From Blastocatellia bacterium (lineage in GTDB: Bacteria; Acidobacteriota; Blastocatellia; RBC074), in the NCBI GenBank assembly GCA_035652435.1, contig DASRDU010000014.1, forward strand, positions 1,359 through 65,358: 64,000 bases of DNA. Direction: 5' to 3'. The stretch's first letter is position 1, and each line of letters opens with the position of its first letter. The notes beneath the pieces are model-generated. The model was given only the letters and a program-made list of their open reading frames with translations. It had not been told where the DNA came from and did not search any database. Position numbers and translations under genes: made by a program. This document shows positions 5,420-29,025 of this stretch, one piece after another.

Positions 5420-7039
5420 TCAAGCGAGTTGAATCTCGATGGCCGCGACGGCTTGCCTGGGAATGTCTACGGCGAGGGTCTCACCGCTGATTTTGACCGG
5501 CAAGGAAGCGGGCCTGACTTCGTTGGTATTTTGGAAGGTATTGCGGGCGCGCATGTCGCTGTGGGTGAGTACGGTGCCGCGCCCCTCGCTGGCCCGCGCA
5601 CCGCCCGCCAGGCGGATGCGAGCAATAATGGGCGAATCCACGGACGCATTGGTGAGCGTGACCGTCAGGCGTTTCTCGCGGAGCGAGGCGGAACCCGTCA
5701 GTCCCGCTATTTTCGCTGTGCTGTCTTGCACCGGGACGGTCAATTGATCTGCTCGAATCTGCATTGGCACTGAGCGCGCGCCCAGATGTGGGCGATACAT
5801 CTCGAACACGTAATAAGGCGGGGTGCGCGTGTACTTGTCTTCAAGCGCCAGGAAGAGCGAATGAATGCAGTTGACCGTCTGCGCGACGTTGGCCATCTCG
5901 ATCTTGTCGGCGTGCCGGTTGAAGATGTCGAAAGTGATGGCCGTGTGCAACGCGTCACGCAGCGTGACGGGCTGGCTCAGGATGTAACCGGGCGTAATCT
6001 CTTCGCCCGGCTGATACCAGACGCCCCATTCGTCAATCACGAGCCTGGTGCGGTGCTGCGGGTCGTACTTGCCCATCACTTTCCAGTGTTCCTCGATGAT
6101 TGCCTCGGTGCGCAATCCTTCGAGCAGCACGGCGTACCAATCGGGCGCTTTGAAATCCGCCACCCTCATTTTGTTGTTACGGAAGTCGGTGTAGAAGTGC
6201 AGCGAGAAGCCATTTACCTGGCTGCGGTGCCCGCCCTGCATCGCCGCGAAGAATCCGTCCGTCCAGCCCAGGTCCATATCGCGTGAATGCCCGCGCGGGC
6301 CGGTCGCGACCAGGAACGGCGTCACATAAACGGGGAACTGCGTGACGAACTTGCGATACTCGACGGCGTATTCGCCCGGCTTCATATCGCCCCCGCAGCC
6401 CCACGATTCATTGCCGACGCCCCAATATTTCACGCGGAACGGCTCCTTGTCGCCGTTGGCCGCGCGCTCGTCGGCCAGGCTTTCCGTACCCGCCGGGGCA
6501 TTGCAATAAGAGACCCAGTCGTGAAACTCCCTGGGCGTGCCCGAACCGACGTTGGCCGCCAGGTAAGGTTCGGCACCGATGAGGCGGCAGAGTCGCATGA
6601 ACTCGTGAATGCCGAACTGATTGGTCTCGGTCGCGTGCAGCCCCTGGGGCATGCGACTCTCCCAAAAGTTATAAGTCCGCGGGCGCCTGGCGGCGGGGCC
6701 GATGCCGTCGCGCCAGTGATAGCCGTCGGCGAAGCAGCCGCCGGGCCAGCGTAAATTCGGCGCGCCGATGCGCTTCATGTCGTCAATGAATTGCCTGCGC
6801 ATTCCGTCCACGTTCGGGATCCTGGAATTGCGCCCCACCCAGATGCCGTCATAGATCACCCCGCCGAGATGCTCGATGAAATGCCCGTAGATGTGAGGGT
6901 TGATGACCGCGCCCGCCCTGTCCGGCGCTAATTCGATTTCGGCGTCTGCGGCCGGCGTGCGCCGTGAGGCCGCCCACGCGCCGAGTCCGGTGCCGAGTCC
7001 CGTGTAAGCTGCTGACTTGAGGAAAGTGCGTCTTTGCAT
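5420..7039 (-). CDS. GH51 alpha-L-arabinofuranosidase (Tat signal).
   Basis: 'MQRRTFLKSAAYTGLGTGLGAWAA' Tat leader. GH51 TIM-barrel signatures 'NLRWPGGCFADGYHWRDGIGP', 'YWGVGNESWGCGG', 'IDEWGVWY', and the C-terminal beta-sandwich. A paralog lies at 31439-33001. Confidence 0.9.
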   Translation of the reverse strand: MQRRTFLKSAAYTGLGTGLGAWAASRRTPAADAEIELAPDRAGAVINPHIYGHFIEHLGGVIYDGIWVGRNSRIPNVDGMRRQFIDDMKRIGAPNLRWPGGCFADGYHWRDGIGPAARRPRTYNFWESRMPQGLHATETNQFGIHEFMRLCRLIGAEPYLAANVGSGTPREFHDWVSYCNAPAGTESLADERAANGDKEPFRVKYWGVGNESWGCGGDMKPGEYAVEYRKFVTQFPVYVTPFLVATGPRGHSRDMDLGWTDGFFAAMQGGHRSQVNGFSLHFYTDFRNNKMRVADFKAPDWYAVLLEGLRTEAIIEEHWKVMGKYDPQHRTRLVIDEWGVWYQPGEEITPGYILSQPVTLRDALHTAITFDIFNRHADKIEMANVAQTVNCIHSLFLALEDKYTRTPPYYVFEMYRPHLGARSVPMQIRADQLTVPVQDSTAKIAGLTGSASLREKRLTVTLTNASVDSPIIARIRLAGGARASEGRGTVLTHSDMRARNTFQNTNEVRPASLPVKISGETLAVDIPRQAVAAIEIQLA

Positions 7040-7085
7040 AATCGGTGATTTGATGATGATTGAGTCTGATGGAGCGAATGATCGT

Positions 7086-8756
7086 TCACTTATTCGCAGG
7101 GCTTATTTCCTCGCCCCAATTCGTTCGGCGTGGCCCCGTCCATTGATCCACATTCGCGCGTTTGGCCCACGCCTCCCACGCGCCCGCAAGTTTTTTGACG
7201 AGGTCTGGATGTTTTGCTGCCAGGTCGTTGCGCTCAACTCGGTCGGCTGTGATGTCATATAGCTCCCAGCCATCCAGATACTTTGAGACGAGCTTCCACT
7301 TGCCTGAGCGAATCGCGCGATTGCCTTCGTGTTCCCAGCAGATGGGTTGTGTTCGTTTGAGCGGGCGCCCGGCAAAGGCGGGACGCAGACTGACGCCTTC
7401 CAGCGGCTGAATGCTCTTGCCCTTGAACTCGCGCGGATACCTGGCTCCGGTCACGTCAACGACCGTCGCCATCAGGTCTGCCACGTGTCCGGGTTGAGGT
7501 TCGAGTTGGTTGTGACGAGCGCGCGGGATGCCTTGCGGCCAGTGCGCGATCAGTGGAGTAGAAATGCCGCCTTCGTGCGTGAAGTGCTTGAACCGCCGGA
7601 AGGGCGTGTTGTTGAGCGCCGCCCAATTCATGCCCAGATAGAGGTTTGAATTCGGCCCGCCGGGAGGATCACCGTTGAAGCGCCCCGCCGGGCCTGATTC
7701 GGCGTTGCCGCCATTGTCCGAAAGAAAGAGAATCAACGTATTGTCCAATGCGCCACGCGCCTGCAATCCTTTCACCAGGGTGCCAACGCTGGTGTCAATC
7801 GCTTCGATCATCGCCGCATACACGGCCATCAGATGATCGAAGCGTTCCTGCTCTTCGTGCGAGAGCGAATCCCAGGCTGGTGATTCCGCTGCGCGCGGGC
7901 TGAGCGGCCACCTGGCGTCAATCAATCCCATTTTGATCTGCCGGCGGTAACGCTCTTCGCGCAGCTTGTCCCAGCCGGCTTTGTATTTGCCGCGATATTT
8001 GGCGATCAGTTCCCGCGGCGCCATCAAGGGGAAATGCGGCGCGTTGTGTGGCAGGTAAAGAAAGAACGGCTTCCCGGCTTTCCGCGCCTCGTCCACAAAC
8101 TTCAACCCAAAATCCGCCCACAGAAAAGTCGCATACCAGTTCTGCCCCAGCAGCGCTGAGTCGTGCGGGAGGGGCTGGCCGTCAAGGTAAAGCGGCTCCT
8201 GCGCGCGCCGGGTCAATTCATCATTACCACCCTGAAAATTCTGATGGGGAAAGAAGATGCCCCCGGCGCGCAAATTCAGCACCCGTTCAAAGCCACGCTG
8301 CCAGGGCGGCGTGCCGTTCTGCTGACCGAGATGCCACTTGCCGGCCATCGCAGTGAAATAGCCGGACGCGCCGAGTACTTCGGCCATCGTGACGCAATGT
8401 TCGTTGAGCTTACCCGTAGTGCCTGACGAACCTTCACGGACAACGTTGTCGAGATGCCCCATCCCGGCCTGATGCGGATAGAGTCCGGTCAGCAAACTGG
8501 CGCGCGTGGGCGAGCAACGGGGCGTGTTGTAAAACTGTGTGAAGCGCACTCCCCTTGCTGCCAGTGCATCGAGATTGGGCGTCGGAATCTCGCCGCCATA
8601 ACACCCGATGTCCGACCAGCCCATGTCATCTACGAGAATGACGACGACATTGGGGCGGGCGTTCCTCTGCGCGACAAGAGTTGACGCGCAGAGGGCGCTC
8701 AGCGCCAGGGCGATGAACGCCTGTTTGAGTAGATTGATTATGCTTTCGTGGTTCAT
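7086..8756 (-). CDS. Arylsulfatase (type I, formylglycine-dependent).
   Basis: Signal peptide, 'PNVVVILVDDMGWSDIGCYGG', 'PRCSPTRASLLTG' (CxPxR), 'GKWHLG', and a 'DNTLILFLSDNG' C-terminal lysine region. Confidence 0.9.
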   Translation of the reverse strand: MNHESIINLLKQAFIALALSALCASTLVAQRNARPNVVVILVDDMGWSDIGCYGGEIPTPNLDALAARGVRFTQFYNTPRCSPTRASLLTGLYPHQAGMGHLDNVVREGSSGTTGKLNEHCVTMAEVLGASGYFTAMAGKWHLGQQNGTPPWQRGFERVLNLRAGGIFFPHQNFQGGNDELTRRAQEPLYLDGQPLPHDSALLGQNWYATFLWADFGLKFVDEARKAGKPFFLYLPHNAPHFPLMAPRELIAKYRGKYKAGWDKLREERYRRQIKMGLIDARWPLSPRAAESPAWDSLSHEEQERFDHLMAVYAAMIEAIDTSVGTLVKGLQARGALDNTLILFLSDNGGNAESGPAGRFNGDPPGGPNSNLYLGMNWAALNNTPFRRFKHFTHEGGISTPLIAHWPQGIPRARHNQLEPQPGHVADLMATVVDVTGARYPREFKGKSIQPLEGVSLRPAFAGRPLKRTQPICWEHEGNRAIRSGKWKLVSKYLDGWELYDITADRVERNDLAAKHPDLVKKLAGAWEAWAKRANVDQWTGPRRTNWGEEISPANK

Positions 8757-9298
8757 TTCATGGTTCCACTCCAGCTCTTTTGGTAGACGATCCGCGTCGT
8801 CGAGGGCGGCCCGCCCGACACACCGCTCCGCGTTGTTTCAACCGCCAGCGTCGTGGGCGAAGTGAGTGCGAGGGTTTGTTTCACTTCGACCTTCAGCGGC
8901 TGACCAGTCGCCGGGTTGTCAAAGCTGTGCGTTGTGGTGATGACCAGCTTGTCGCTTTCCCACGCGGTCTTCGACGTTTGCGCCTGAATGCCGCGCCCCA
9001 TCATGACGGAGTTTTTCGTTTCCGACCCGTCGAGCGCGTAGACGAATTTCAGCGGCGGCTGCCTGTCGCCGCGCGCGAAGAATTCATACGTGACCGTCAG
9101 CCGCTCCGCCGTCTGGGCGATGGTGATGTTCGACCCCCAGCCGCTGCCCATATTGCCGGCGCGTGCGCTGCCGGCGGCTCGCGGCGTGTCCGGCTCAACC
9201 GCCCAGCGGCCGGAGAAGTCCGGCCCCGTCCGGGCCATCGCATTGACGGCTGACAGGACGAGGAGCGCACCATTCAAAAAATTTGTCAGGCGTTTCAT
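8753..9298 (-). CDS. Hypothetical secreted protein (~160-aa mature, predicted beta-rich). It is translationally coupled to the sulfatase.
   Basis: The start was reassigned to 'MKRLTNFLNGALLVLSAVNAMA' (Sec signal), 9 nt after an AAGGAG RBS. Its stop overlaps the sulfatase start (ATGA, 8753-8756). I recognise no family. Confidence 0.55.
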   Translation of the reverse strand: MKRLTNFLNGALLVLSAVNAMARTGPDFSGRWAVEPDTPRAAGSARAGNMGSGWGSNITIAQTAERLTVTYEFFARGDRQPPLKFVYALDGSETKNSVMMGRGIQAQTSKTAWESDKLVITTTHSFDNPATGQPLKVEVKQTLALTSPTTLAVETTRSGVSGGPPSTTRIVYQKSWSGTMK

Positions 9299-9538
9299 CA
9301 ATGTTGACTCCTTCAACAATACTCAGCTCTCGAATGGAGAATGGTCGCCATCCTGGCACGGCGGCCGGAAAGTAACAATGCCTCAGTCGCCGTGTCGCTA
9401 ATCCGGTTCAAGCAGCCTTACGTTCATCCAAGACACCGCTGTTCCGGCGCGTATTCTTTACAGAACCCGGCCCGGATAACGTCGCATCGCCCGTAAGGGC
9501 GCCGGAGTCATTGATCGCACCGGCAGGGGAGGACAACT

Positions 9539-11678
9539 ATGAAAAGAACCGCGAAAAGGTCGCTTCTGTCAGGGTTGGTCTGGACAGTTTTAGCGATTGC
9601 AGTTCCGGCCCAGGTCGCCACGACCGGACAACTGGTCGGCACCGTGCAGGATCAATCGGGCGCAACCGTCCCCGGCGTCGGGTTGCGGCTGCAGAATGAA
9701 GACACGAAAGCCGTGCTGACCGCCACGGCCGGCGCCGAAGGGGGCTTCGTCTTTCCGACTTTGTCGCCGGGCAGCTACACCCTGACCGTCAGCAAACAGG
9801 GGTTCGAGACGACGGTTTACCGCAGGCTCATCATCTACGCGGCGCGCACGACCGATCAGACTGTGGTTTTGAATATCGGCACCGTCACGCAGACCGTCGA
9901 AGTGCAGGGCGAAGGGCAGGTCCTCCAGACGACAACCAACACCATCGCCAGCACGGTGGATCAGAAATACCTGCAGGACCTGCCGCTGCCGGGGCGCAAC
10001 GCATTGCCCTTCGTGTTGCTCTCGGCGGGAGCGCAGCAGGGCGTCACCTCGCGCGACAGCACGATTAACGGGTTGCCGGGCGCTTCGCTCAACATCACGC
10101 TCAACGGCGTCGCCAACAACGCGCAGCGCTTCAAGAGCGGCGGCACCAGCTTCTTCGCGTTTGTTGCGCCCCGTCTGGAGAGCGTGCAGGAAGTTACCAT
10201 TGCCACATCAAACCTCGGCGCGAATAGTACCGGACAGGGCGCGGTTCAGATTCAATTCGTCACCAGATCGGGCACGAACGCCTGGCACGGCGAGGTCTTC
10301 TGGCAGCACCAGAACTCGGCGCTCAACGCCAACAACTGGTTCAATAACGCGCGCGGCATCAAGCGACCCGTGTTCATACAGAACGACCAGGGCGGGGCGC
10401 TCGGCGGGCCAGTCATCAAAAACAAACTCTTCTTCTTTGTCAGTTATGCGCACGTGAAGACGCCGCAATCGTCAGACTACGAAGCCCGCGTCCTCGCGCC
10501 GGCCGCGCAAACGGGCGTCTTCACCTACGTCGGCAGCGACGGCACGACGCGGAGCGTGAACCTGCTTCAGATCGCCGGGGCGAGCGGCTTACCGAGTACC
10601 GTCAACCCGATCATCGCCGCGCAGCTGCAGAAGATTCAATCGTCCACTTCGGCAGGTGCCGTCTCCACCTTCGATCTGTTCCGCAACCGATTACGCTGGG
10701 TCGCGCCGTCGCCCACCACCAACCAGTTTATGACGGCGCGATTTGACTATCAGCCCTCGGAAAAGCTGCGCCTGAGCGTCTCCGACACCTATAACCGGAA
10801 TGTGAACGACCGGGGATTTCGCGGGACGGTCCTGCCCGGCGTCTTCACCGAGGAGCAGTCGGTCGGGCAAATCTCCAACCCCTACATTGCCGGCGCCAGC
10901 GCCAACTGGACGCTCAGCCCGAACAAGGTCAACGAGTTCAATTTCGGCATTCAGAGCAATCAGGAGACTTTCAGCATCGGCTACGACCGCAGCCTCTTCA
11001 AGCCACGGCTGCTGAACTTTCCGCTGTCGCTGGCGAGCGGGCTGGAGGCGCAGAACAGCATCGGCAGCGGCATTACCTTCCAGCCGCGCAACAACCCCGT
11101 CTACAATCTGGCGGACAATTTCTTTTACCAGCGTGGCAACCATCCTCGACGGCGTGATCGGCGGCTGGACGGTCGGCGCGATCTTCCGCATGCAGTCGGG
11201 TCTGCCCTTCAAGCTGAGCAGCGGTCGCCTGACAGTCAACCAGTCGGATGCGGGCGTGGTTTTGAATGGGGTGACGACTTCTGACCTGCAAAAGCTGGTC
11301 GGCGTCTTCAAAGGCTCCGGCCCGGATGTCTTCTTCCTCGACCCGAAGCTCACAGGCAGTGACGGGCGCGCGAGCAGCAGTTTCCTCACCTCGCCCGCAA
11401 CGCCGGGCCAGTTCGGGGCCTTCGTCTATTTGCACGGGCCGCGGTTTGTGACGACGGACCTGTCGCTCGCGAAGGTGGTGCCGCTCATCAGGGAACGCGT
11501 GCGGATGGAGATCAGGGCCGAGATGGTCAACGCCTTCAACCACCCGATCTTTGAAGTGCCGACGGGCGGAACATTTGGTGTCACGCCCGTCAGTATTACG
11601 GCAACGAACTTTGGCCGCACGACGACCACCACGTCAGTCCCACGCCAGGTGCAGTTCAGGATTCGATTCACGTTTTAA
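9539..11678 (+). pseudogene. Carboxypeptidase-regulatory-domain TonB-dependent receptor-like outer-membrane protein, decayed by an internal deletion of ~1.6 kb plus a frame change.
   Basis: ORF 9539-11284 (581 aa) matches the N-terminal ~560 aa of the intact paralogs (22880-26779, 45483-49358), up to '...NNPVYNLADNFFYQRGNH'. The reading then continues in the +2 frame (11133-11678) and matches only the last ~180 aa of the paralogs ('ILDGVIGGWTVGAIF...VQFRIRFTF'). The central ~550-aa barrel region is missing. Confidence 0.75.
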
Positions 11679-12078
11679 GAGGGGGAGCGAAGCGTAAACA
11701 TTTCGCGAAACGGCAGAGGACGCCGCTGGTGCGGATTTGAATGGCTGGTCCCGGCGCGCGCTCGCCTCCACCGAAGAGTTGGATTACAGTGAAGCGCTCA
11801 GGTTGGTACGGGCCGCGCTTTGCAAACTGCAGATGGAACACGGCCCAAAAATAAATGGGAGCCTGAAATCTGCGAGGACGCGACGGAAGCGCAAAAGATG
11901 CGCTTACAAAGGTTGATTGGGCATACAGGGGAAGTGGGGCCGCGACCACTCTCGCAGTCCTCTTCGCCTGCCGCCCGGCGACGACCTGGCCGGGGCTGGT
12001 GATCGTGCTGGCGGGCGTGCCGGTCTATTACCCGCTCTTGTTACGCGGGGCCGGGAAGGCCCCGAAAGGAGTCACGAC

Positions 12079-14457
12079 GTGAGACGCATTGCGACCGCGG
12101 CCTTCATTCTGCTGATCGCCGCGCAAGTGATCGCGCCCGCCGGTCCGGGCGCGCGGGGAGAAGGGAAGGAGAAAGTTCAGTTCAAGGCGCGCGAATTCGA
12201 GCCGGGCGCCGTCAGGCTGCTCGACGGCCCGTTCCGCGAGGCGATGCTGCGCGATCAGAAATACCTGCTCAGCCTGGACAACGACCGGCTGCTGCACAAT
12301 TTCCGCGTCAACGCCGGGCTGCCCTCGTCGGCCAGGCCGCTCGGCGGGTGGGAGGCGCCCGATGTCGAGTTGCGCGGCCACAGCGTCGGCCACTTTCTGA
12401 CTGCACTGGCGCTGATGTACGCGGGCACGGGCGACGAGCGGTTCAAGGCGAAAGGTGACGCGCTGGTCGCCGAACTGGCCAGAGTGCAGCAGGCGCTGCC
12501 CTCGCGCGGGGCGAATCCCGGATACCTCTCCGCCTTCCCGGAAGAGTTTTTTGACCGCGTGGACAAGCGGCAGCGCGTCTGGGCCCCTTACTACACGCTG
12601 CATAAGATCATGGCCGGTCTGCTCGACATGCGTCAGCTCGCGGGCAACCGGCAGGCGCTCGACGTACTCCTGAAGCTGGCCGACTGGGTCAGGTTCCGCG
12701 TGGACCGGCTGAGCGACGACGAGCAGCAGGCCGTGCTGCAGACCGAATTCGGCGGGATGAATGACGTACTCGCGAGCCTCTACGCTGTCACCGGCAACCC
12801 GGAGTACCTGCGCATCGCGCGCAAGTTCGATCACCGCCGCGTCTTCGACCCGCTCGCGCGCGGCGAAGACCCACTGAGCGGGCTGCACGCCAACACGCAA
12901 ATCCCGAAGGCCATCGGCGCGGCGCGCGAATACGAAGTGACCGGCGAGCAGCGCTACCACGACATCGCCAGCTTCTTCTGGGAGCGCGTGGCCGGGCATC
13001 GTTCCTACGTCATCGGCGGCAACAGCGACAACGAGAGCTTCTTCCCGCCCGAACAGTTCTCGAAGCATCTGGGGGCGTCCAGCACGGAGACGTGCAACAC
13101 CTACAACATGCTCAAACTGTCGCGCCACCTCTTCGCCTGGGAGCCGTCGGCGCGGACGATGGACTTCTACGAACGCGGCCTCTACAACCACATCCTCGCC
13201 TCGCAGGACCCGCCGACCGGGATGATGACCTATTACGTGCCGCTGCGGCCGGGCGCGTTCCGGACTTACTCCACGCCCGACGCTTCGTTCTGGTGCTGCG
13301 TCGGCACGGGGATGGAGAACCATGCGAAGTACGGCGACACGATCTACTTCCGCGCCGATCAGGCCCTCTACGTCAACCTCTTCATCGCCTCGGAGCTGAA
13401 CTGGAAGGAGAAGGGCCTCACCGTCCGCCAGGAGACCCGGTTCCCCGAAGAGGACACGACGAGACTGACGGTCAAAACGGCCAAGCCACTTAAACTGGCC
13501 TTCAGGATTCGCTACCCGTCGTGGGCGCAATCGGGGATGACGCTCGCGGTCAACGGCAGGAAAGAGACCGTGACGGCCGGCCCCGGCTCTTACGTCACGG
13601 TCGAGCGCGAATGGAAGAACGGTGACACCATCGAAGTGAAACTGCCGATGAGTCTGCGGCTCGAAGCGATGCCGGACGACCCGCGGATGGTGGCGTTGTT
13701 GTATGGCCCGATAGTGCTTGGCGGCGATCTGGGCAAAGAGGATCTGACCGACGAGCGGCGCTACGGCCCCAGCGCGCCGCAGATGGGCCGCGTCAAGCCG
13801 ATCCAGGTTCCAGTCTTCATCGGCGAGGTCAGGGACGTGCTGGCGAAGGTGAAGCCGGTGGCGGGCTCGCCGCTCCACTTCCGCACCGAGGGGCTGGCCC
13901 GGCCGCAGGAAGTCTCGCTCGCGCCTTTCTATTCGCTCCACGTCCGCCGGTACAACGTCTACTGGAAAGTCTGGCAGCCGGCCGAGTGGGAGAAGCTCAA
14001 AGGAGAGCTGGCCGCCGCCGAGGCGCGCCGGAAGGTGATCGAGCGCCACACCGTTGACGCCGTCAACCTGAATGACAGGCAGAGCGAGCAGGCCCACAAC
14101 CTGAAGGGTGAAGGGCTCGTGGACGGCGAATTCGACGGCAAACGCTGGCGCGCCGCGCGCGGCTGGTTCAGCTATGAATTGAAAGTCGTGCCGGACAAGC
14201 CGGTGACGCTCGTGTGTACTTACCGCGGCAGCGAAGGCCGCCTGCGTTCATTCGACGTGATCGTGGAAGGCGAGAAGGTCGCCACGCAGACGCTCGAAAT
14301 CCACCCGGGCGAATTGTTCGATTTCGAATACCCGCTGCCCGAAGCGTTGACGCGCGGCAGGCAGCGCATCACGGTCAAATTCCAGGCGCGCCCCGATTCG
14401 ATAGCGGGCAGCCTGTTCGACGTGCGCGTGGCGCAGCTCGATGGAGGAGAAAAGTAG
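12079..14457 (+). CDS. GH127 (DUF1680) beta-L-arabinofuranosidase-like protein with a C-terminal extension.
   Basis: GTG start after an AAGGAG RBS and a signal peptide 'VRRIATAAFILLIAAQVIAPAG'. GH127 (alpha/alpha)6 motifs 'YYTLHKIMAGLLD', 'NTQIPKAIGAAREYEVTG', and the Cys-rich zinc site 'FWCCVGTGMENHAKYGD'. About 200 aa extra at the C terminus. The track ORF start at 11917 is upstream read-through. Confidence 0.85.
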   Translation: MRRIATAAFILLIAAQVIAPAGPGARGEGKEKVQFKAREFEPGAVRLLDGPFREAMLRDQKYLLSLDNDRLLHNFRVNAGLPSSARPLGGWEAPDVELRGHSVGHFLTALALMYAGTGDERFKAKGDALVAELARVQQALPSRGANPGYLSAFPEEFFDRVDKRQRVWAPYYTLHKIMAGLLDMRQLAGNRQALDVLLKLADWVRFRVDRLSDDEQQAVLQTEFGGMNDVLASLYAVTGNPEYLRIARKFDHRRVFDPLARGEDPLSGLHANTQIPKAIGAAREYEVTGEQRYHDIASFFWERVAGHRSYVIGGNSDNESFFPPEQFSKHLGASSTETCNTYNMLKLSRHLFAWEPSARTMDFYERGLYNHILASQDPPTGMMTYYVPLRPGAFRTYSTPDASFWCCVGTGMENHAKYGDTIYFRADQALYVNLFIASELNWKEKGLTVRQETRFPEEDTTRLTVKTAKPLKLAFRIRYPSWAQSGMTLAVNGRKETVTAGPGSYVTVEREWKNGDTIEVKLPMSLRLEAMPDDPRMVALLYGPIVLGGDLGKEDLTDERRYGPSAPQMGRVKPIQVPVFIGEVRDVLAKVKPVAGSPLHFRTEGLARPQEVSLAPFYSLHVRRYNVYWKVWQPAEWEKLKGELAAAEARRKVIERHTVDAVNLNDRQSEQAHNLKGEGLVDGEFDGKRWRAARGWFSYELKVVPDKPVTLVCTYRGSEGRLRSFDVIVEGEKVATQTLEIHPGELFDFEYPLPEALTRGRQRITVKFQARPDSIAGSLFDVRVAQLDGGEK

Positions 14458-18424: not shown

Positions 18425-20992
18425 ATGGTCATCCGCAAATGTATCAAGCTTGTCTTTCTTGCGGGCGTGTGCTGTCTGGTCGTGTTTTTCACCCGGCTGC
18501 CGCGCGTCGGCGCCGAGCTGCGGCAGGATGAGGCGCAGGACATCTCGAGGCAGGCGTACGCCATTCTGAAGAAGAACTGCCTCGCCTGCCACGGCGCGGC
18601 CAGAACTTCCGGCCTCGACCTGCGGACGGGCGAAGGCGTGACGATGGGCGGCGACAACGGACCCGTCATCGTGCCTTCCGACGCCGAGGCCAGCAAACTC
18701 TTCCAACTCGTCACGCACGAGCGGAAGCCGACGATGCCGCCGGGCAAAAAGCTTGCGGACGCCGAGATTGAAACGCTGCGGCGCTGGATCGAAGCGGGCG
18801 CCCCGACCGACGGGTTTGAGAAGACTGCCGCCGCCCCTTCGGGGGATGCCGGCAAAGCCGAACTCGCCAGACTGGAAGATCGTCCCATCACACCCGAAGA
18901 GCGCCGCTACTGGGCGTTCCAGCCGCCGCGGCGCGCGACACCGCCGCGCGTCGCCCCGGCCGACTGGAACAAAAACCCAATAGACACCTTTCTGCTTTCG
19001 GCGATGAAGGCGAAAGGCCTGAAGCCGTCGCCGCGCGCGGACCGCCGCACGCTCGTCCGCCGCGCTTACCTCGATCTGCTCGGCCTGCCGCCGAGCCCCG
19101 AAGAGGTGGCGGCCTTTGAAAAAGACACGGCGCCCGATGCCTGGGAGCGGCTCTTGGAGAGGCTGCTCGCCAGCCCGCATTACGGGGAGCGGTGGGCGCG
19201 CCACTGGCTCGACCTCGTGCGCTACGCCGATTCCGGCGGCTTCGAGTTTGACGTGGACCGGCCCGACGCCTGGCGCTACCGCGATTACGTCGTCAAATCC
19301 TTCAACGACGACAAGCCATATGACCAGTTCGTTAAGGAACAGCTCGCCGGGGATGAGTACGCGCCCGATTCACAGGAGGCGATGATCGCGACCGGGTTCC
19401 TGCGCCTCGGGCCGGAAGGCGGCGGGGGCGGCGAGCGCGGGCGGCAGGATTCGCTTGACGACATCATCACGACCACCACGCTGACGTTCCTGGGGCTGAC
19501 GGTCGGCTGCGCGCGCTGCCATAATCATAAGTTTGACCCGATCCCGCAGAAGGACTATTACCGCATTCAGGCAGTCTTCTACTCGACGCGGCCCGCCAGT
19601 TATCCGCTCGTCGGCGCAGACGTGGTGGCGGCGCACAGGGCCGAAACGCAGCGTATCGAGAGTATGCAGCGGCCATTGAAGAAGGCCAAATCGGATCTGG
19701 AGGCGCCTTACCTGAAGGCGCTCGTGGAAGAGGCCGTCAGCCGGCTGCCCGAATACATGCAAATCGCCTGGCGCACGCCCCCTGAGAAGCGCACGCCCGG
19801 CCAGCGCCTCAACGTGCAGCAGATCAGGAAGACGCTCGAAGACGATGCGCTCTCGCAGAAGCTGACCGAAAAAGACATCGTCGCACGCATGACGCCCGAG
19901 GACAGGCGCAGGCACGAGGAGCTGGTCGAACAGATCAAGACGCTCGAACGGCAGAAGCCGAAGCCGTACCCGACGGCGCGGGCCATCGGAGAGGACGGAC
20001 CCCGGGCGCGGCCTTCGTATTTCCTGCATCGCGGCAGCGTGGACGCGAAAGGATCGCTCGTCAGCCCGGGCGTACTCTCGGTCGCCTGCGAGAGCGAATA
20101 CCAGTTCCCGGCGCCGCCCGCGAACGCGAAATCGAGTTTCAGGCGGCGTGGGTTTGCCGAGTGGCTGGTCGCACCAGACAACCCGCTCACCGCGCGCGTC
20201 ATGGTCAACCGCATCTGGCAGCACCATTTCGGCGAGGGCATCGTCCGCACGCCCGGCAATTTCGGCCGGATGGGTGAGCCGCCCACACACCCCGAACTGC
20301 TCGACTGGCTGGCCACGGAGTTCGTCGCGCGCGGCTGGAGCATTAAGCAGATGCACCGCCAGATGATGACCTCGCAGGCCTATCAGATGGCGAGCAATGA
20401 CACGCCCGCGAACGCGGCCATTGACCCCGAGAATCGCTTCTTCTGGCGCATGCCGCGCGTGCGGCTGGAAGCCGAGATCATCCGCGATCAGATTCTGGCC
20501 GTCGCGGGCAACCTGGATCGCACGCTGGGCGGCCCGTGCGTCTATCCGTACATTGATCCGAAGCTTTTCCAGTCGAGTACCAAACGCACGTGGCCGGGTA
20601 AGCCCGACGATGACCCTTCAACATGGCGGCGTAGCCTGTACGTCTACTCCAAGCGGAGCATCCGCTACCCGCTTTTTGAAGCCTTCGACCAGCCGAACCT
20701 GATCAACTCCTGCGAACGCCGTAACCGCTCGACCATCGCGCCGCAGGCGCTGCTGCTGATGAACAACAACTTCGTCATCATGGAGTCGAAGTTCTTCGCC
20801 GAGCGTTTGCGGAAGGAGGCGGGCGACGACGCGCGGGCGCAGGCCGAACGGGCCTTTCGGCTGACGCTGGCGCGCGCGCCGACTGCGTTTGAGCTGACGA
20901 AAGCCGTGGAGTTCATTCGGAGCGGCCCGGACGGGCTCGCCGGATTCTGTCAGGCGTTATTCAATCTGAATGAATTCGTCTACTGGCAATAA
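18425..20992 (+). CDS. PSCyt1-DUF1549-PSCyt2-DUF1553 (PSD1) domain protein (the 'planctomycete cytochrome c' family).
   Basis: 'CLACHGAARTSGLDLRT' (heme-like CxxCH), DUF1549 'GERWARHWLDLVRYADSGGFEFD', 'CARCHNHKFDPIPQKDYYRIQAVF', and C-terminal DUF1553 'SCERRNRSTIAPQALLLMNNNF'. Confidence 0.85.
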   Translation: MVIRKCIKLVFLAGVCCLVVFFTRLPRVGAELRQDEAQDISRQAYAILKKNCLACHGAARTSGLDLRTGEGVTMGGDNGPVIVPSDAEASKLFQLVTHERKPTMPPGKKLADAEIETLRRWIEAGAPTDGFEKTAAAPSGDAGKAELARLEDRPITPEERRYWAFQPPRRATPPRVAPADWNKNPIDTFLLSAMKAKGLKPSPRADRRTLVRRAYLDLLGLPPSPEEVAAFEKDTAPDAWERLLERLLASPHYGERWARHWLDLVRYADSGGFEFDVDRPDAWRYRDYVVKSFNDDKPYDQFVKEQLAGDEYAPDSQEAMIATGFLRLGPEGGGGGERGRQDSLDDIITTTTLTFLGLTVGCARCHNHKFDPIPQKDYYRIQAVFYSTRPASYPLVGADVVAAHRAETQRIESMQRPLKKAKSDLEAPYLKALVEEAVSRLPEYMQIAWRTPPEKRTPGQRLNVQQIRKTLEDDALSQKLTEKDIVARMTPEDRRRHEELVEQIKTLERQKPKPYPTARAIGEDGPRARPSYFLHRGSVDAKGSLVSPGVLSVACESEYQFPAPPANAKSSFRRRGFAEWLVAPDNPLTARVMVNRIWQHHFGEGIVRTPGNFGRMGEPPTHPELLDWLATEFVARGWSIKQMHRQMMTSQAYQMASNDTPANAAIDPENRFFWRMPRVRLEAEIIRDQILAVAGNLDRTLGGPCVYPYIDPKLFQSSTKRTWPGKPDDDPSTWRRSLYVYSKRSIRYPLFEAFDQPNLINSCERRNRSTIAPQALLLMNNNFVIMESKFFAERLRKEAGDDARAQAERAFRLTLARAPTAFELTKAVEFIRSGPDGLAGFCQALFNLNEFVYWQ

Positions 20993-21111: not shown

Positions 21112-22524
21112 ATGAAGCAATACTTCTGTTCGAGACGAGAGCTTTTGCAGCAGCTGGGCGGCGGCATCGCCGGCGTCGCCTTCGCCGACCTGCTCTGCCG
21201 CAACGGGCTGCTGGCGCAGACCAGATCGCCGCTCGCGCCCAAAGCGCCGCACTTCCCGGCCAAAGCCAAAGCGGTGATCTCGATCTTCTGTTACGGCGGC
21301 GTCAGCCAGGTGGACACCTTCGACCCCAAGCCCGAACTGCTCAGACGCCAGGGCGAGGCGATGACGGGCGTGGGCGAAGTGCGCCCGACGATGGGCACGC
21401 CCGGCGGGCTGATGCCCTCGCCGTGGGAGTTCAAAAAGCGCGGGCAGTGCGGGATGGAGATTTCAGAGCTGTTCCCTCGCGTGGCCGAACACGCCGACGA
21501 CCTGGCGCTGATCCGCTCGATGACGGCGCTCAGCCCGGCGCACGGCCCCGCGCTATTCCAGATGAACACGGGCAGCATCCTCGCCGGGCACCCGAGCGTC
21601 GGCAGCTGGGTGACGTACGGGCTGGGCAGCGAGAACGAAAATCTCCCGGGCTTCATCGTCTTCACGGATTATCGCGGCGGCCCGATCAACGGCGCGCCCA
21701 ACTGGGGCAACGGCTACATGCCGGCGGCGTATCAGGGCACGCCGTTCCGCGACACCGGCGACCCGATCGTTGACCTGCGCCCGCCCGAAGGGCGCACGCC
21801 GGAAGGGCAGCAGAAATGGCTGCGGCTCCTGCGCGAACTCAATGAAAAGCACCTCGACCACAACCCCGAAGACGGCGAGCTGGCGGCGCGCATCCACTCC
21901 TATGAACTGGCTTTCCGCATGCAGACGCACGCCACCGACGCGATTGACATCAGCAGGGAATCCGCCGCGACGCTGAAAGCTTACGGCGTGGGCGAGCAGC
22001 CGACCGATTACTTTGGCCGCCAGGCCCTGATGGCACGGCGGCTGGTCGAACGCGGCGTGCGCTTCGTGCAGATCTTTTCGGGCGGCGGCAACTTCGAGCC
22101 GAGCTGGGACGCGCACTGGGATTTGAAGGGCAACCACGGCCTGCATTGCGCCGAGACCGACAAGCCCATCGCCGGCCTGATCAGTGACCTCAAGGGCCGC
22201 GGCCTCTTCGATTCGACGCTCATCCTCTGGCACGGCGAGTTCGGGCGCCTGCCGATTTCCGAGCGGATGGACGGGCGCGATCACAACGCCGCAGGCTTCA
22301 GCGTCTGGCTGGCCGGGGGCGGCGTCAAAGGCGGCACGGTCGTCGGCGCGACTGACGAGTACGGCTACCGCGCCGTCGAGAACAAAAAGACGATCTACGA
22401 ACTGCACGCAACGTTGCTGCACCTGCTCGGGCTCGATTACGAGAAGCTGACCTACCGTTTCGGCGGGCGCGACATGCGGCTGACCGATGTCCACGGGCGC
22501 GTGATCAGGGAGGTTCTGGCCTGA
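21112..22524 (+). CDS. DUF1501 domain protein (sulfatase-like fold, Tat-secreted). It is the canonical partner of PSD1/DUF1553 proteins.
   Basis: 'SRRELLQQLGGGIAGVAFADL' Tat leader. DUF1501 core 'ISIFCYGGVSQVDTFDPKP', and C-terminal 'ILWHGEFGRLP...DHN'. Confidence 0.85.
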   Translation: MKQYFCSRRELLQQLGGGIAGVAFADLLCRNGLLAQTRSPLAPKAPHFPAKAKAVISIFCYGGVSQVDTFDPKPELLRRQGEAMTGVGEVRPTMGTPGGLMPSPWEFKKRGQCGMEISELFPRVAEHADDLALIRSMTALSPAHGPALFQMNTGSILAGHPSVGSWVTYGLGSENENLPGFIVFTDYRGGPINGAPNWGNGYMPAAYQGTPFRDTGDPIVDLRPPEGRTPEGQQKWLRLLRELNEKHLDHNPEDGELAARIHSYELAFRMQTHATDAIDISRESAATLKAYGVGEQPTDYFGRQALMARRLVERGVRFVQIFSGGGNFEPSWDAHWDLKGNHGLHCAETDKPIAGLISDLKGRGLFDSTLILWHGEFGRLPISERMDGRDHNAAGFSVWLAGGGVKGGTVVGATDEYGYRAVENKKTIYELHATLLHLLGLDYEKLTYRFGGRDMRLTDVHGRVIREVLA

Positions 22525-22879
22525 GAGTCAAAGGGGCGATTCAGCCGGCCCCTCACTAAGCTCATTCAAGCCTGCTTAAGCCGGTACAAGACCTGCTGAC
22601 GAAGGCAGTGTTTTATTGACACTGTTCTCACTTCTTAAGGAATCGCGTGACGGGTTTGATCGAAATTGATAGAAATGAGCATTCCCGAAAATCGCGGATC
22701 AACTGACTGACACTACCTTTAGCTGGCTTTGCGGGGTTCAGTGGGCCGGACGCCGCGTCCTTTGGCAGACGACAACAGGCCGGATGTGGCGTCCGGTTCC
22801 GAATAAATTTGTGTTCCCCGCTCGAAGGCGGGGGAGGGGATTGGACTCTCACCTATCAATTACCTGAGGGGGGTTGGTT

Positions 22880-25800
22880 ATGGAACGACCACATGCGAGA
22901 AAGCTGAATCAGAGCCGGGCAGTGATCGGAATGTTGTTGCTGCTGGCCGTACTCTTAATTCCTGCCACCACGGCCCGGGCGCAGTTGCGGATTGTCGGGT
23001 CGGTCTCCGGGACGGTCCAGGATTCGACCGGGGGCGTGATCCCGAACGCCAGGGTTGTTTTGAAAGACTCGAAAACCGGCATCACGAAGGAAGTCACCTC
23101 GACCGAGAGAGGTACATTCCTGTTTCCGGATCTGCCCAGCGGCTTGTACGAGGTGACGGTGACGGCGCCGGGATTTCGGACGGCGCTCCTCAATAACATC
23201 TCCGTTTCGACCAACCAGACGACGGACGTGCGGATCAGCATGGAGGTCGGCGCCACGTCGGAAACCATCACGGTGAGTGGCGGAGATGCGCAGACGCTCG
23301 AAACCTCCTCTCAACTGGTGGCGAGTACCCTGACGACACAGACGCTCGCTCAACTGCCGGTCGCCAATCGCAGCAATGTTCTGGCGCTGGCCCGGCTCGC
23401 TCCCGGCGCCTCACCTCCCACGGGCGGCAGCACGCGCTACAACAACCTGGCGGGCGGCGCGGTCAACGTCACCGTGGACGGCATCAACAATGCCTCGAAT
23501 GGGTTCAAGAGCGGCGGGACCGTCTTCTTCGCAACCGTGCCTTCCCGCCTGGGGGCGGTGGAAGAGGTGACGGTGGAGACCGGCGGTCTGGGCGCGGACT
23601 CCGGCGCGCAGAGCGGCGCGAATATCAAATTCACCACCCGGCGCGGCGGCAACCAGTATCACGGCAGCGGCTTTTACGAATTGCGCAGCGAGCAGCTCAG
23701 CGCGAACAGCTGGTCGAGAAACGCCCAGGGGTTGCCGCGAGTTTACAACCGCAATCACGAGTTCGGCGGGAATTTCGGCGGGCCGCTGGTTCCATTCTTC
23801 GGGTTGAGAGAGAAGCTCTTCTTCTTCGTCAACTATGAATACCGGTACAACCCGCAATTCAACAGCACGACACTGGCCATCCCGACGCCCGACGCGCTGA
23901 AAGGCATCTACACGTATGTCGTCAGCGGCACGACCAATCAGCTGCGGACGGCCAACGTGCTGGACCTGGCCGCCGCGCGGGGCCTGCGGACGACGCTCGA
24001 TCCGGTCGCGCAGGCAATCCTCAACATCAATAACCAGATTCCGAAATACAGCCGGCAGATTGCGGATAACGATTTCAACCGCGATTTCTACACCTGGGAT
24101 GCGGAGAACAATCTGAAACAATACTTCCCCACCACGCGGGTGGATTATTTCGTGACGCCGAAACAGCAGCTGACGTTCACCTGGAACTACTACCACAGCT
24201 GGCAGCCGGGCGCGCGGCGCCTGCCGGTGCCGGACATCGAAAGAACCAACCCGTTCCGCATCGGCTATTTCGTCTATTCCGGCGCGCTGCAATCCACGTT
24301 CGGGACGCGCACCTTCAACGAATTCCGCTACGGCGTGCAGCACAGCGGGGACACCAACACGCGCGATGAGTACGGCCCCTACTATCAGTTCAACAACAAG
24401 CCGTTGCGCATCGGCGCGACGTTGCCGTTCAGCCTCGCGAGCCCGCAGGGCCCTCTGGTTCCGTTCATTGACCAGCAGAACGTGACGGGCCGGCACTTCA
24501 TCACGACGATGTACGACACGATGACGCTCAACCGCGGGCAGCATACGATCACGCTCGGTGGCAGCTACCGCAAAACCTCCTGGAACGATGTCGCCGTGGT
24601 TTATCAGGTCCCGACGTACGCCACCGGCACGCCGTCGGGCGATCCGCTGCAAGTGTCACAGGCGTACACCACCACCACCCTGCCCGGGATCAACAGCACC
24701 CTGCTGGGCGATCCCCTGGCGCTCTACAACCTGTTGACCGGCAGAGTCGCCTCGTCAGGCTTCACCCGTGTCGTCAACCCTGAGACGCTCAAATACGACG
24801 GCATCCAGGAGCAGAACTACACCTGGACCAACTCGAAAATGGGCGGCCTCTACGCGCAGGATCGCTGGCGCATCCGGCGAAGCCTGACCTTGAATTACGG
24901 CTTACGCTGGGAGGTGCAGGGCCCGATGAAGGACGGCAAGGGGCTGACGGCAGTCCCGGATCTGGCGAGCCTGTTCGGGCCTTCGAAGAGATTGTTTGCG
25001 CCGGGCGACCTGAGCGGTAACAACAACCCGACGGTCGAAGTCGGCCGGGTGCCCTACGACACGGACTGGCTCAATTTCGCGCCCAACATCGGTTTTGCCT
25101 GGAATCCCAATAAAACCGACGGCCTGCTGGGCAAAGTGCTGGGCGGTCAGAAGACCGTCTTCCGTGGTTCCTATTCGACCATTGTCTACGACGAAGGGAC
25201 GCAGTTTTTTGCGGCCAACTTGGGGCCGAATGCAGGCAAAACAATCGGGGCCACCACGCTCATACCGGGGACGGCGGGCGCGACCAGTCTGCCGGCCTTC
25301 TACACGCTCTCGGACATCGTGGGCAATCCGCTGACCGTTTCAAATTTCGCGTTCACGACGACCGAGTACAAGAAGGTCATCAACCAGGCGGATCAGACTT
25401 TCGCGCGGACGATCAATGGTTTTGACCCCAACCTGCGCGCGCCGTACACCGAAAATTATACCTTCGGCATTCAGCGCGAGTTGTGGAAGAACACGGTGCT
25501 GGAAGTTCGCTACGTGGGCAACCAGTCGAAACTCGCCTGGCGCACCAGCAATTTGAACGAGGTCAATATCTTTGAAAATGGCTTCCTGAACGAGTTCAAG
25601 AACGCGAAGAAGAACCTGGACATTAACGTGGCGGCCGGCGTCAACAGCTTCCAGAATCTGGGGCGTTCGGGGCAGGTGGCGCTGCCGATCTTCGACGCCG
25701 CTTTCGGCGCTCGCGGCGCGCTCGCGGCAATCGCGGCCGGCTCCGGTTACCAGTCCACGGCCTTCATCACCAACCTGCAAAACGGCGAGGCCGGCGCCCT

Positions 25801-26779
25801 GGCCAACACGCTGGCCACTAACCAGAACTACGTGTGCCGCATGTTCGGCAGCAACTTCAGCCCCTGCGCCCGGGTGCTGCCGACCGCCAACGCACCGGGG
25901 CCTTACCCGATCAACTTCTTCCTGCTCAACCCCTACGTGGCCGGCCGCATGAGCATTGTGGATAACGGCGGCTGGCACGGCTACAATGGCCTGCAGATTC
26001 AGTTCCGGCAGCGGCTCTCGCAGGGAGTGAACTGGACGACCAATTACACCTTCAGCAAGAGCCTGACCAATCTGGCCGCAGACAACCAGAACCAGAGCCT
26101 CGATTATGTGACTTTGCGTGATCCCGGACTGAACCGCCGGTTGTCTCAGTTCGACATCCGCCACGTCATCCAGACCTACGGGACCTATGAGCTGCCAATC
26201 GGTCGAGGGAAGTGGCTGGACCTTAATAACCGCTGGCTCGATACCGCAATCGGCGGCTGGACGCTGGGCTCGATCTTTGTGTTTAATACGGGCCAGCCCA
26301 TCCAGTTGACGGGGGGATTTCAGACCGTCAACAATAGCAACAACCCGACGCAGAACGGCGTCAGGCTGGCACCGGGCGTCACGCTCGACCAGATTCAGAA
26401 GCTGTTTGACGCGGAGCGGACGCGCCTGACCGGCAGAGCAGGCATTACGGACCTGCAACGGCTGGCCGTTGATCCGAGCCTGATCGGCCCCGACGGCCGC
26501 GCCAACCCGCAGTTCCTGCTCCCGAACACGACTCCCGGTGAATTCGGGCAGTTGCTTTTCCTGCGCGACAAGAATACGTTCCAGTGGGACGTTTCGCTGA
26601 CGAAGGCATTCAGGATCACTGAGAAGACGCGTTTCGAGCTGTTTGCCACCTTCAACAACGTCCTGAATCACCCGCGGTGGGGCTTCCCCGATACGAACGT
26701 CTTCAGCACGACGTTCGGCGTGGTGGGCGCTCCCTCAGGGAATCGCACGATCAACCTGCGCGGGACGCTCAGCTTCTGA
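22880..26779 (+). CDS. Carboxypeptidase-regulatory-domain TonB-dependent receptor-like outer-membrane protein (SusC-analogous acidobacterial type), intact, ~1300 aa.
   Basis: Signal peptide, an N-terminal CarbopepD_reg-like fold ('RIVGSVSGTVQDSTGGVIPNARVVL...GLYEVTVTAPGF'), a plug-like region ('NGFKSGGTVFFATVPS'), a long beta-barrel, and a C-terminal 'TINLRGTLSF' (terminal aromatic). The ATG at 22880 lies 7 nt after a GAGGGGGG RBS. Confidence 0.85.
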   Translation: MERPHARKLNQSRAVIGMLLLLAVLLIPATTARAQLRIVGSVSGTVQDSTGGVIPNARVVLKDSKTGITKEVTSTERGTFLFPDLPSGLYEVTVTAPGFRTALLNNISVSTNQTTDVRISMEVGATSETITVSGGDAQTLETSSQLVASTLTTQTLAQLPVANRSNVLALARLAPGASPPTGGSTRYNNLAGGAVNVTVDGINNASNGFKSGGTVFFATVPSRLGAVEEVTVETGGLGADSGAQSGANIKFTTRRGGNQYHGSGFYELRSEQLSANSWSRNAQGLPRVYNRNHEFGGNFGGPLVPFFGLREKLFFFVNYEYRYNPQFNSTTLAIPTPDALKGIYTYVVSGTTNQLRTANVLDLAAARGLRTTLDPVAQAILNINNQIPKYSRQIADNDFNRDFYTWDAENNLKQYFPTTRVDYFVTPKQQLTFTWNYYHSWQPGARRLPVPDIERTNPFRIGYFVYSGALQSTFGTRTFNEFRYGVQHSGDTNTRDEYGPYYQFNNKPLRIGATLPFSLASPQGPLVPFIDQQNVTGRHFITTMYDTMTLNRGQHTITLGGSYRKTSWNDVAVVYQVPTYATGTPSGDPLQVSQAYTTTTLPGINSTLLGDPLALYNLLTGRVASSGFTRVVNPETLKYDGIQEQNYTWTNSKMGGLYAQDRWRIRRSLTLNYGLRWEVQGPMKDGKGLTAVPDLASLFGPSKRLFAPGDLSGNNNPTVEVGRVPYDTDWLNFAPNIGFAWNPNKTDGLLGKVLGGQKTVFRGSYSTIVYDEGTQFFAANLGPNAGKTIGATTLIPGTAGATSLPAFYTLSDIVGNPLTVSNFAFTTTEYKKVINQADQTFARTINGFDPNLRAPYTENYTFGIQRELWKNTVLEVRYVGNQSKLAWRTSNLNEVNIFENGFLNEFKNAKKNLDINVAAGVNSFQNLGRSGQVALPIFDAAFGARGALAAIAAGSGYQSTAFITNLQNGEAGALANTLATNQNYVCRMFGSNFSPCARVLPTANAPGPYPINFFLLNPYVAGRMSIVDNGGWHGYNGLQIQFRQRLSQGVNWTTNYTFSKSLTNLAADNQNQSLDYVTLRDPGLNRRLSQFDIRHVIQTYGTYELPIGRGKWLDLNNRWLDTAIGGWTLGSIFVFNTGQPIQLTGGFQTVNNSNNPTQNGVRLAPGVTLDQIQKLFDAERTRLTGRAGITDLQRLAVDPSLIGPDGRANPQFLLPNTTPGEFGQLLFLRDKNTFQWDVSLTKAFRITEKTRFELFATFNNVLNHPRWGFPDTNVFSTTFGVVGAPSGNRTINLRGTLSF

Positions 26780-28932: not shown

Positions 28933-29025
28933 AACTGGAACGCCATTCGGTCATCGAATATTTACTTGTCGACGCAATGTTCAATCGAACAAAGCCGGCG
29001 TGTTAACGCCTCGCAGGAAATCGCA

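Follow-up and report, generated by a model that had tools for sequence, protein, structure and literature searches.

Two overlapping open reading frames (ORFs) that match opposite ends of the same long protein could be two short genes, a divided but working receptor, or the remains of a gene that has been lost. Which of these lies at positions 9539-11678 of a 64,000-nucleotide stretch of DNA from a Blastocatellia bacterium (Acidobacteriota; NCBI GenBank assembly GCA_035652435.1, contig DASRDU010000014.1, positions 1,359 to 65,358 of the forward strand), the whole of which is referred to here as the window? There, a 581-residue ORF (9539-11284, forward strand) is overlapped by a 181-residue ORF in another frame of the same strand (11133-11678). 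A first-pass annotation had taken the pair for a gene like those of TonB-dependent receptors (TBDRs), inactivated by an internal deletion of about 1.6 kb. The analysis described below bears this out. We put at roughly 85% the probability that 9539-11678 is a recent pseudogene of a receptor of about 1271 amino acids (CarboxypepD_reg domain, plug-like region and PF25183 barrel), broken by one 1661-bp deletion at a microhomology and belonging to a decaying module of receptor and M61 peptidase. The pseudogene is real, but it is an ordinary kind of feature.

Two frames of one receptor gene

Comparison of the sequences confirmed the two ORFs as the N- and C-terminal parts of a single putative TBDR gene. 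In BLASTP searches the N-terminal fragment matches residues 5-560 of an intact paralog in the window (45483-49358, reverse strand) and the C-terminal fragment, in its different frame, matches residues 1108-1286 of the same protein; the second intact paralog (22874-26779, forward strand) gives equivalent matches to both. The Pfam barrel family PF25183, a profile of 838 positions, is divided between the two, with positions 1-299 in the first ORF, 691-838 in the second, and 300-690 missing. An intact ortholog, the protein P0231, is a single ORF of 1271 residues on a 219-kb contig (L175; related loci are cited here by such numbers) and served as the reference. By tblastn its residues 1-541 are kept at 9539-11143 with 74.5% identity and its residues 1095-1271 at 11142-11675 with 86% identity, residues 542-1094 being absent.

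The retained 5′ part (9539-11142, forward), as delimited by the ORF list, Pfam, tblastn and a structural model, holds a signal peptide, a CarboxypepD_reg domain (residues 32-111), a plug-like region and roughly the first 10-11 strands of the barrel. Homology in the first ORF stops at 11142, just after the residues FFYQRGNH, from which point the frame runs on through 46 nonsense residues (PRRRDRRLDG...WGDDF; 11143-11284, forward) to a stop; the +1 frame of this same DNA is the true C-terminal coding sequence. The retained 3′ part (11143-11678, forward) comprises the last ~177 codons, ending in RFTF and a TAA stop, and the ORF that contains it (MATILDGVIGGWTVG...RFTF) has its mechanical start at a GTG codon at 11133 and no signal peptide of its own. 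The estimate that the last ~180 residues had been kept in another frame thus agrees well with the mapping, and the N-terminal part is indeed kept, but its homologous length is ~535 residues (541 in the numbering of the reference) and not the ~560 first proposed.

The native length of the receptor can be put at about 1271 residues on these comparisons, because P0231 is intact in a single ORF and full-length DNA spans of the receptor ortholog are present in L002, L170 and L172. Orthologs of 76-84% identity run past YYQRGNH into AFSFGGNY..., so a full-length allele of the window gene would be expected to read on from ...GGCAACCA into AFSFGG-coding sequence. A homolog search did return orthologs of 719-930 residues, but these lengths reflect contig ends and not native short forms; all 230 proteins returned by that search were shorter than 1000 residues, in a family whose members typically have 1100-1300.

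The DNA breakpoints were mapped by blastn on the orthologous loci L002 and L003, the paralogs in the window having proved too distant, at only 33-38% protein identity, to be of any use as references at the DNA level. The match to window 9386-11142 is L002 9850-11605, and that to window 11140-11677 is L002 13264-13804, which leaves L002 11606-13266 without a counterpart in the window. The missing segment is 1661 nt long, that is 553 codons and 2 nt, and since 1661 is 3 × 553 + 2 (a remainder of 2 on division by three), one deletion accounts for both the gap and the change of frame. The deletion and the frameshift that the first-pass annotation had listed side by side were therefore both there to be seen, yet they are one event, and the junction that it had placed at 11135-11145 falls at 11140-11142 (forward), where the trinucleotide CCA is common to both flanks as a microhomology of 2-3 nt. 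No insertion sequence (IS) element, IS scar, repeat or compositional break was found near the junction.

A single 1661-bp deletion took out codons 542-1094, about the central third to half of the barrel. Its probable origin is illegitimate recombination, or slippage during replication, at the CCA microhomology of 2-3 nt, and the same event shifted the final 177 codons into another frame. What is left could at most yield a secreted fragment of 581 residues, with about 10-11 of the 22 strands followed by the 46-residue nonsense tail, and possibly a second product, a C-terminal piece lacking a signal peptide. Because neither fragment should be able to form a closed barrel, transport would have been lost, as far as architecture can tell. 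Scans for promoters and terminators gave counts near those of shuffled controls, with 1 promoter-like site against a mean of 0.5 and 5 terminator-like sites against 3.4.

That the ancestral gene was TBDR-like is supported by structure prediction. An AlphaFold2 model of the N-terminal fragment, built from a 45-sequence alignment (mean pLDDT 77, pTM 0.72), consists of a signal helix, a beta-sandwich (30-111), a mixed alpha/beta plug-like region (~137-242) and about 10-11 long beta-strands, and the support comes from its best matches in the PDB being all TonB-dependent transporters: PirA, PfeA, Cir, FepA, BtuB and SusC, each with probability 1.0. Sequence identity in these matches is only ~10%, and TM-scores are low (0.2-0.4) as the barrel is partial. 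The beta-sandwich corresponds to PF13620 (CarboxypepD_reg), which Pfam places at residues 32-111 with E=3.9e-16. The Pfam plug family PF07715 went undetected in the window copies, and the candidate for a plug is the mixed alpha/beta region that precedes the barrel hairpins in the model. Read from the sequence, TQTVEVQG at about residues 116-123 (alignment consensus ETVxVxG) is a candidate TonB box. The C-terminal aromatic residue of the beta-signal is present (...QFRIRFTF, against ...QFRVRFTF in P0231), out of frame with the signal peptide. A complete barrel of 22 strands is not encoded by the focal gene; in the intact ortholog and in both paralogs, PF25183 is matched over its full length. Searched against NCBIfam the pseudogene matched no family, and a sequence search of the PDB found its carboxypeptidase D domain only.

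Age of the lesion and the peptidase remnant beside it

How long ago was the receptor broken? Pseudogenes are commonly recognized either by relaxed selection or by homology together with a lesion in essential sequence, and here it is the second that applies, in the form of the 1661-nt out-of-frame deletion relative to an intact ortholog. Of relaxed selection there is no sign. The ratio of nonsynonymous to synonymous substitution rates (dN/dS) of the window fragments against four relatives, among them the intact L175, is 0.07-0.16, as it also is between the relatives themselves, at synonymous distances (dS) of about 0.7-1.1. In Tajima relative-rate tests the window copy has not changed faster than its relatives (for example, 22 versus 26 unique amino-acid changes against P0001, p=0.56), and the 711 retained codons contain no stop and no further frameshift. 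With ~1600 nonsynonymous sites kept, 0.01-0.02 neutral substitutions per site would add ~16-32 amino-acid changes. Because dN/dS is low, the rate is not accelerated and secondary lesions are absent, we interpret the deletion as very recent relative to the divergence from these relatives, at roughly less than 0.01-0.02 substitutions per site.

The DNA immediately downstream has a longer history of decay. In L002 and L003 a gene for an M61 peptidase directly follows the receptor gene, and in the window a C-terminal remnant of such a gene (11680-11924, forward; residues ~447-526 of 530) starts 2 nt past the receptor stop, in ~245 nt previously counted as intergenic. Used as tblastn queries, the M61 proteins from L002 and L003 detect it (E about 3e-12) as two pieces, 11680-11799 (residues ~447-486, 57-62% identity) and 11811-11924 (residues ~490-526, 37-40% identity), with an in-frame stop near the start (frame of 11680) and one change of frame, and it is present likewise in two further assemblies of the locus, L001 and L169. 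The same tail is 76% identical in protein sequence between the two intact M61 genes. Because the remnant is more diverged from L002 and L003 (~68% DNA identity) than the receptor fragments are (83%), the ~1.5-kb deletion behind the loss of the first ~85% of M61 probably predates that in the receptor by a long time, an estimate that is rough, coming from only ~120 nt. It would seem, then, that the M61 gene was truncated earlier by a separate deletion of ~1.5 kb starting at the receptor stop codon, and that the lineage of the window is losing a small module made up of receptor and M61.

The next gene encodes a GH127 beta-L-arabinofuranosidase-like glycoside hydrolase (12079-14457, forward), which, as first proposed, is intact, with full coverage of PF07944, PF20736, PF16375 and PF20620. 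Its mechanical start is a TTG codon at 11917, inside the M61 remnant; the true start is probably the GTG at 12079, which has a Shine-Dalgarno-like motif (GAAAGGAG) 7 nt upstream and opens a signal-peptide-like N-terminus. The picture of a porin leading a polysaccharide utilization locus (PUL) together with this GH127 gene did not hold up. It is M61 that follows the receptor in L002 and L003, and the GH127 gene that comes after M61 in L002 shares only 41% identity with the one beside the window pseudogene, so the adjacent gene is not established as the ancestral neighbor of the receptor. The ortholog of the L002 gene, at 85% identity, is another GH127 of the window (29104-31413), and these identities indicate, at the level of sequence, that modules have been rearranged between lineages. 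Nor was a SusD-like partner found by Pfam beside any of the three receptor genes of the window in the neighbors scanned. There are three GH127 genes in the window in all, 12079-14457, 28966-31416 (the gene to which 29104-31413 belongs, after a receptor paralog and a DUF885 gene) and 37696-40458 on the reverse strand.

Allele frequency, selection or artefact

The deletion has been assembled more than once. The 581-residue product is recorded identically on three contigs; L001, the Logan assembly of SRR5581483, is 100% identical to the window over 5876-12015, and L169 (GCA_037025565.1) is 99.6% identical over 7431-13348 with the same junction, the junction sequence being identical in both. What these assemblies say about the frequency of the deletion is a separate matter, and it is here that the points weighing against our reading come together. 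In L169 the junction is preceded, at a distance of exactly 55 nt, by a scaffold gap of 10 N (L169 3657-3666, at window 11087), and two mismatches (window 11066 and 11073) stand shortly ahead of the gap, a pattern that fits branching of a k=55 graph at the junction and may come from a co-existing full-length allele. Support for the junction takes the form of concordance between assemblies, not of reads, and the three assemblies may share the same or overlapping reads, the assemblers being independent but the samples not necessarily so. Finally, the absence of decay could also reflect continued selection on the fragments, which is unlikely.

These observations give some room to the idea that the deletion is polymorphic, that is, that the deletion allele co-exists with an intact one, the assemblers having reported the deletion path, and that the loss is not fixed. 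Fragments as undecayed as these would fit a very young and possibly unfixed allele. However, the deletion path was chosen by all three assemblies, and an intact allele of nearly the same sequence did not turn up, the best match to the N-terminal fragment being 83-84% identical, although this argument is weakened by the restriction of the homolog search to proteins shorter than 1000 residues. In scans of genome and metagenome contigs with the N-terminal fragment, the matches listed, taken up by motifs common to the whole family, were essentially distant paralogs of at most 41% identity, except for one short fragment of 76% (L093). Polymorphism thus seems improbable to us, though it survives better than any other alternative, and it is in any case compatible with the pseudogene reading, of which it would alter only the allele frequency.

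A different challenge is that the loss was not neutral. The first-pass annotation had suggested comparing the orthologous loci, and this was done by mapping the lesions of relatives onto L002 and P0231. The receptor locus can be followed across relatives because of a conserved upstream gene, a hypothetical gene of 187-188 residues without a Pfam hit (8753-9319, reverse strand), which serves as a syntenic anchor with 78-82% blastn identity to L002, L164 and L167. Several of the relatives have different lesions of their own. In L164 (2014-4753) residues 583-935 are missing, out of frame, by what looks like a simple deletion with no evident microhomology; in L165 (415-1957) and likewise in L166-L168, four assemblies in all, residues ~288-1035 are missing, a span that encloses the one lost in L164, again out of frame, with a microhomology of 2 nt; and L003 (6573-9856) has lost residues 430-601 in frame, with a microhomology of 6 nt (ACGCGC), together with 1 nt from a C-run near residue ~930. 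In L171 (24-1540) an IS transposase abuts a C-terminal remnant of the receptor. The genes adjoining the receptor are intact in L164, L165 and L003. By contrast, L002 and L170 are full length but show at least four frame switches each, their neighboring genes being fragmented too, and these breaks are attributed to long-read errors. A common or programmed frameshift near residue ~930, considered for L002, L003 and the end of P0001, was rejected, since L003 has lost one C and L002 has an extra A ~20 nt away. Because the remnants keep low dN/dS values, even between L164 and L165 (0.09-0.14 at a dS of 0.19), the lesions of the relatives also appear to be young.

TonB-dependent receptors are established receptors for phages and colicins, and internal deletions are a kind of lesion found in receptor-loss mutants of TonB-dependent transporters. 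It can be asked whether a phage or bacteriocin entered the cell by this receptor, the recurrent recent knock-outs being positively selected rather than the product of neutral decay. On that account at least four related lineages of soil Blastocatellia would each have lost the same receptor recently and by a separate knock-out, with an IS-associated truncation in a fifth. The lesions just described speak for it, in the form of no fewer than three further, apparently independent, internal deletions (L164, L165-L168 and L003) and an IS element abutting the remnant in L171, and so does the strong purifying selection recorded in all of the remnants; complexes of Cir and of BtuB with colicins are among the structural matches, and the tail spikes of crAss-like phages have been proposed to bind TBDRs of Bacteroides, from docking predictions only (PMC10028833). 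Ascertainment is severely biased, however. With all 230 proteins of the homolog search below 1000 residues, only truncated or split versions could be found, and when the N-terminus of an intact paralog was searched as a control, no match of 1000 residues or more came back either. A representative protein library, on the other hand, contains the intact P0231 and many paralogs of 1200-1330 residues. A tally in which every contig spanning the gene appeared disrupted was discarded after this control, and the library then yielded the intact 1271-residue ortholog. Given this bias, the frequency of receptor disruption cannot be judged. Likewise, a core common to four deletions (L002 11709-11790) was set aside, such an overlap being expected by chance (P=0.26-0.46). 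There is no phage or bacteriocin evidence for this lineage, and the loss of the M61 partner as well fits disuse better than escape from a receptor-binding agent. We regard selected loss, in the window and in the relatives together, as doubtful, and less probable than polymorphism.

Could the gene be intact in the organism, the deletion or the change of frame having come from assembly or sequencing? The source is a metagenome-assembled genome, and relatives assembled from long reads (L002, L170 and L174) do show many spurious frame breaks. The lesion in the window is of another sort, a clean loss of 1661 nt and not a homopolymer indel, in a neighborhood whose genes are all intact. It is not an assembler artefact, because three assemblies from different pipelines carry the identical junction, and it is not a shortcut through a de Bruijn graph, because a microhomology of only 2-3 nt is far below any k-mer size. 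An artefact is accordingly very improbable.

Least likely of all is that the 581- and 181-residue products, or a frameshifted fusion of ~715 residues, make up a functional minimal receptor, for although both fragments are still open and the fused length would resemble classical TBDRs such as FhuA, the homolog search found no single-frame short homolog (the existence of which would have spoken against the first-pass annotation), the apparent matches of 719 and 750 residues stop where their contigs do, after running through the breakpoint normally, barrel profile positions 300-690 are missing, the parts are out of frame without a slippery or common frameshift site, the breakpoints differ in each related lineage, and the C-terminal fragment has no signal peptide.

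The locus among known receptor systems

The two intact receptors in the window, of 1301 residues (22874-26779, forward) and 1291 residues (45483-49358, reverse), were first seen as recent duplicates of the decaying copy. At 33% and 38% identity to its N-terminal fragment they are instead old members of a large family, and a recent duplication is not the background to this loss. In Acidobacteria, TonB-dependent receptors have been described as a paralog family that is both large and old (PMC3174227). Acidobacterial receptors with PF13620 and PF25183 (OMP_b-brl_4), of ~1100-1300 residues, share both the Pfam families and the domain order of the focal gene, and the intact ortholog (1271 residues) and the window paralogs are of typical length for them; the database names of homologs are "TonB-dependent receptor" or "carboxypeptidase regulatory-like domain-containing protein". 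What sets the focal copy apart from the working receptors is the absence of barrel profile positions 300-690 and the division into two frames. The downstream neighbors also differ among the three window genes, the focal gene being followed by the M61 remnant and GH127, the paralog at 22874 by a DUF885 gene and then a GH127 gene, and the paralog at 45483 by a gene for a 613-residue protein without a Pfam match. That the two intact paralogs lie beside GH127 or peptidase genes makes functional redundancy plausible. In L173 (4130-6083) the ortholog of the paralog at 45483-49358 can be followed only as far as residue 594, with ~190 nt of contig still to come; either the end of this contig is chimeric or the receptor there is truncated too.

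The SusC/RagA transporters of PULs in Bacteroidota also have a carboxypeptidase-regulatory-like domain (here PF13620) before plug and barrel, and like their loci the focal gene lies among genes for glycoside hydrolases and peptidases; four SusC structures (8a9y, 8aa4, 5fq6 and 6zlt) are among the fold matches of the model. Unlike them, however, the focal gene belongs to Acidobacteriota, its barrel family is PF25183, and the place of a SusD-like partner, missing from the scanned neighbors, is taken in the relatives by a conserved partner that is an M61 peptidase and not a glycan-binding lipoprotein. The phage and colicin receptors FhuA, BtuB, Cir and FepA share the fold of the model at an identity of only ~10%, and, unlike in their resistance mutants, there is here no evidence for any phage or bacteriocin. 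The closest likeness is to ordinary unitary pseudogenes of bacteria, in that an out-of-frame internal deletion at 2-3 nt of microhomology, with no mobile element, stands next to a gene remnant (M61) that has decayed further. The one departure is that orthologs in several related lineages carry different deletions, the significance of which is not judgeable given the bias of the search.

The surroundings of the receptor are variable. Downstream flanks differ in every locus examined and upstream flanks in some, and because of these differences the receptor gene would lie at a rearrangement-prone boundary. In L175 (8001-11816) the intact ortholog, the only one retrieved, has an alpha/beta-hydrolase gene beside it upstream and neither M61 nor GH127 downstream. 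The window as a whole is rich in functions for breaking down arabinofuranosides and peptides, and encodes GH43, two GH51, three GH127 and GH31 hydrolases, a sulfatase, S9 and M20 peptidases, an AraC regulator and DAO-type oxidoreductases. Amid the glycan-degradation genes there is also a PSCyt1/PSCyt2/PSD1 (DUF1549/DUF1553) gene at 18425-20992, followed by a DUF1501 gene at 21112-22524; the Pfam names of this pair refer to Planctomycetes, and the host here is a Blastocatellia metagenome-assembled genome.

For annotation, the consequence of reading 9539-11678 as a recently broken receptor is that it should be entered as one pseudogene and not as two hypothetical proteins, and that 11680-11924 should be entered as a second pseudogene remnant and not as intergenic DNA. 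A wider significance would follow only if the recurrent deletions in relatives were enriched compared with other receptors, which the present data cannot show; if disruption proved much commoner than in paralogous receptors, this would suggest that positive selection has repeatedly favored the loss of the receptor in uncultured soil Acidobacteriota. For the organism itself, the lesions fall into a sequence, with the loss of M61 old and the receptor deletion recent, and the locus offers a clean, small case of the stepwise loss of a receptor-peptidase module while plausibly redundant paralogous receptors are kept in a region for arabinofuranoside and peptide utilization.

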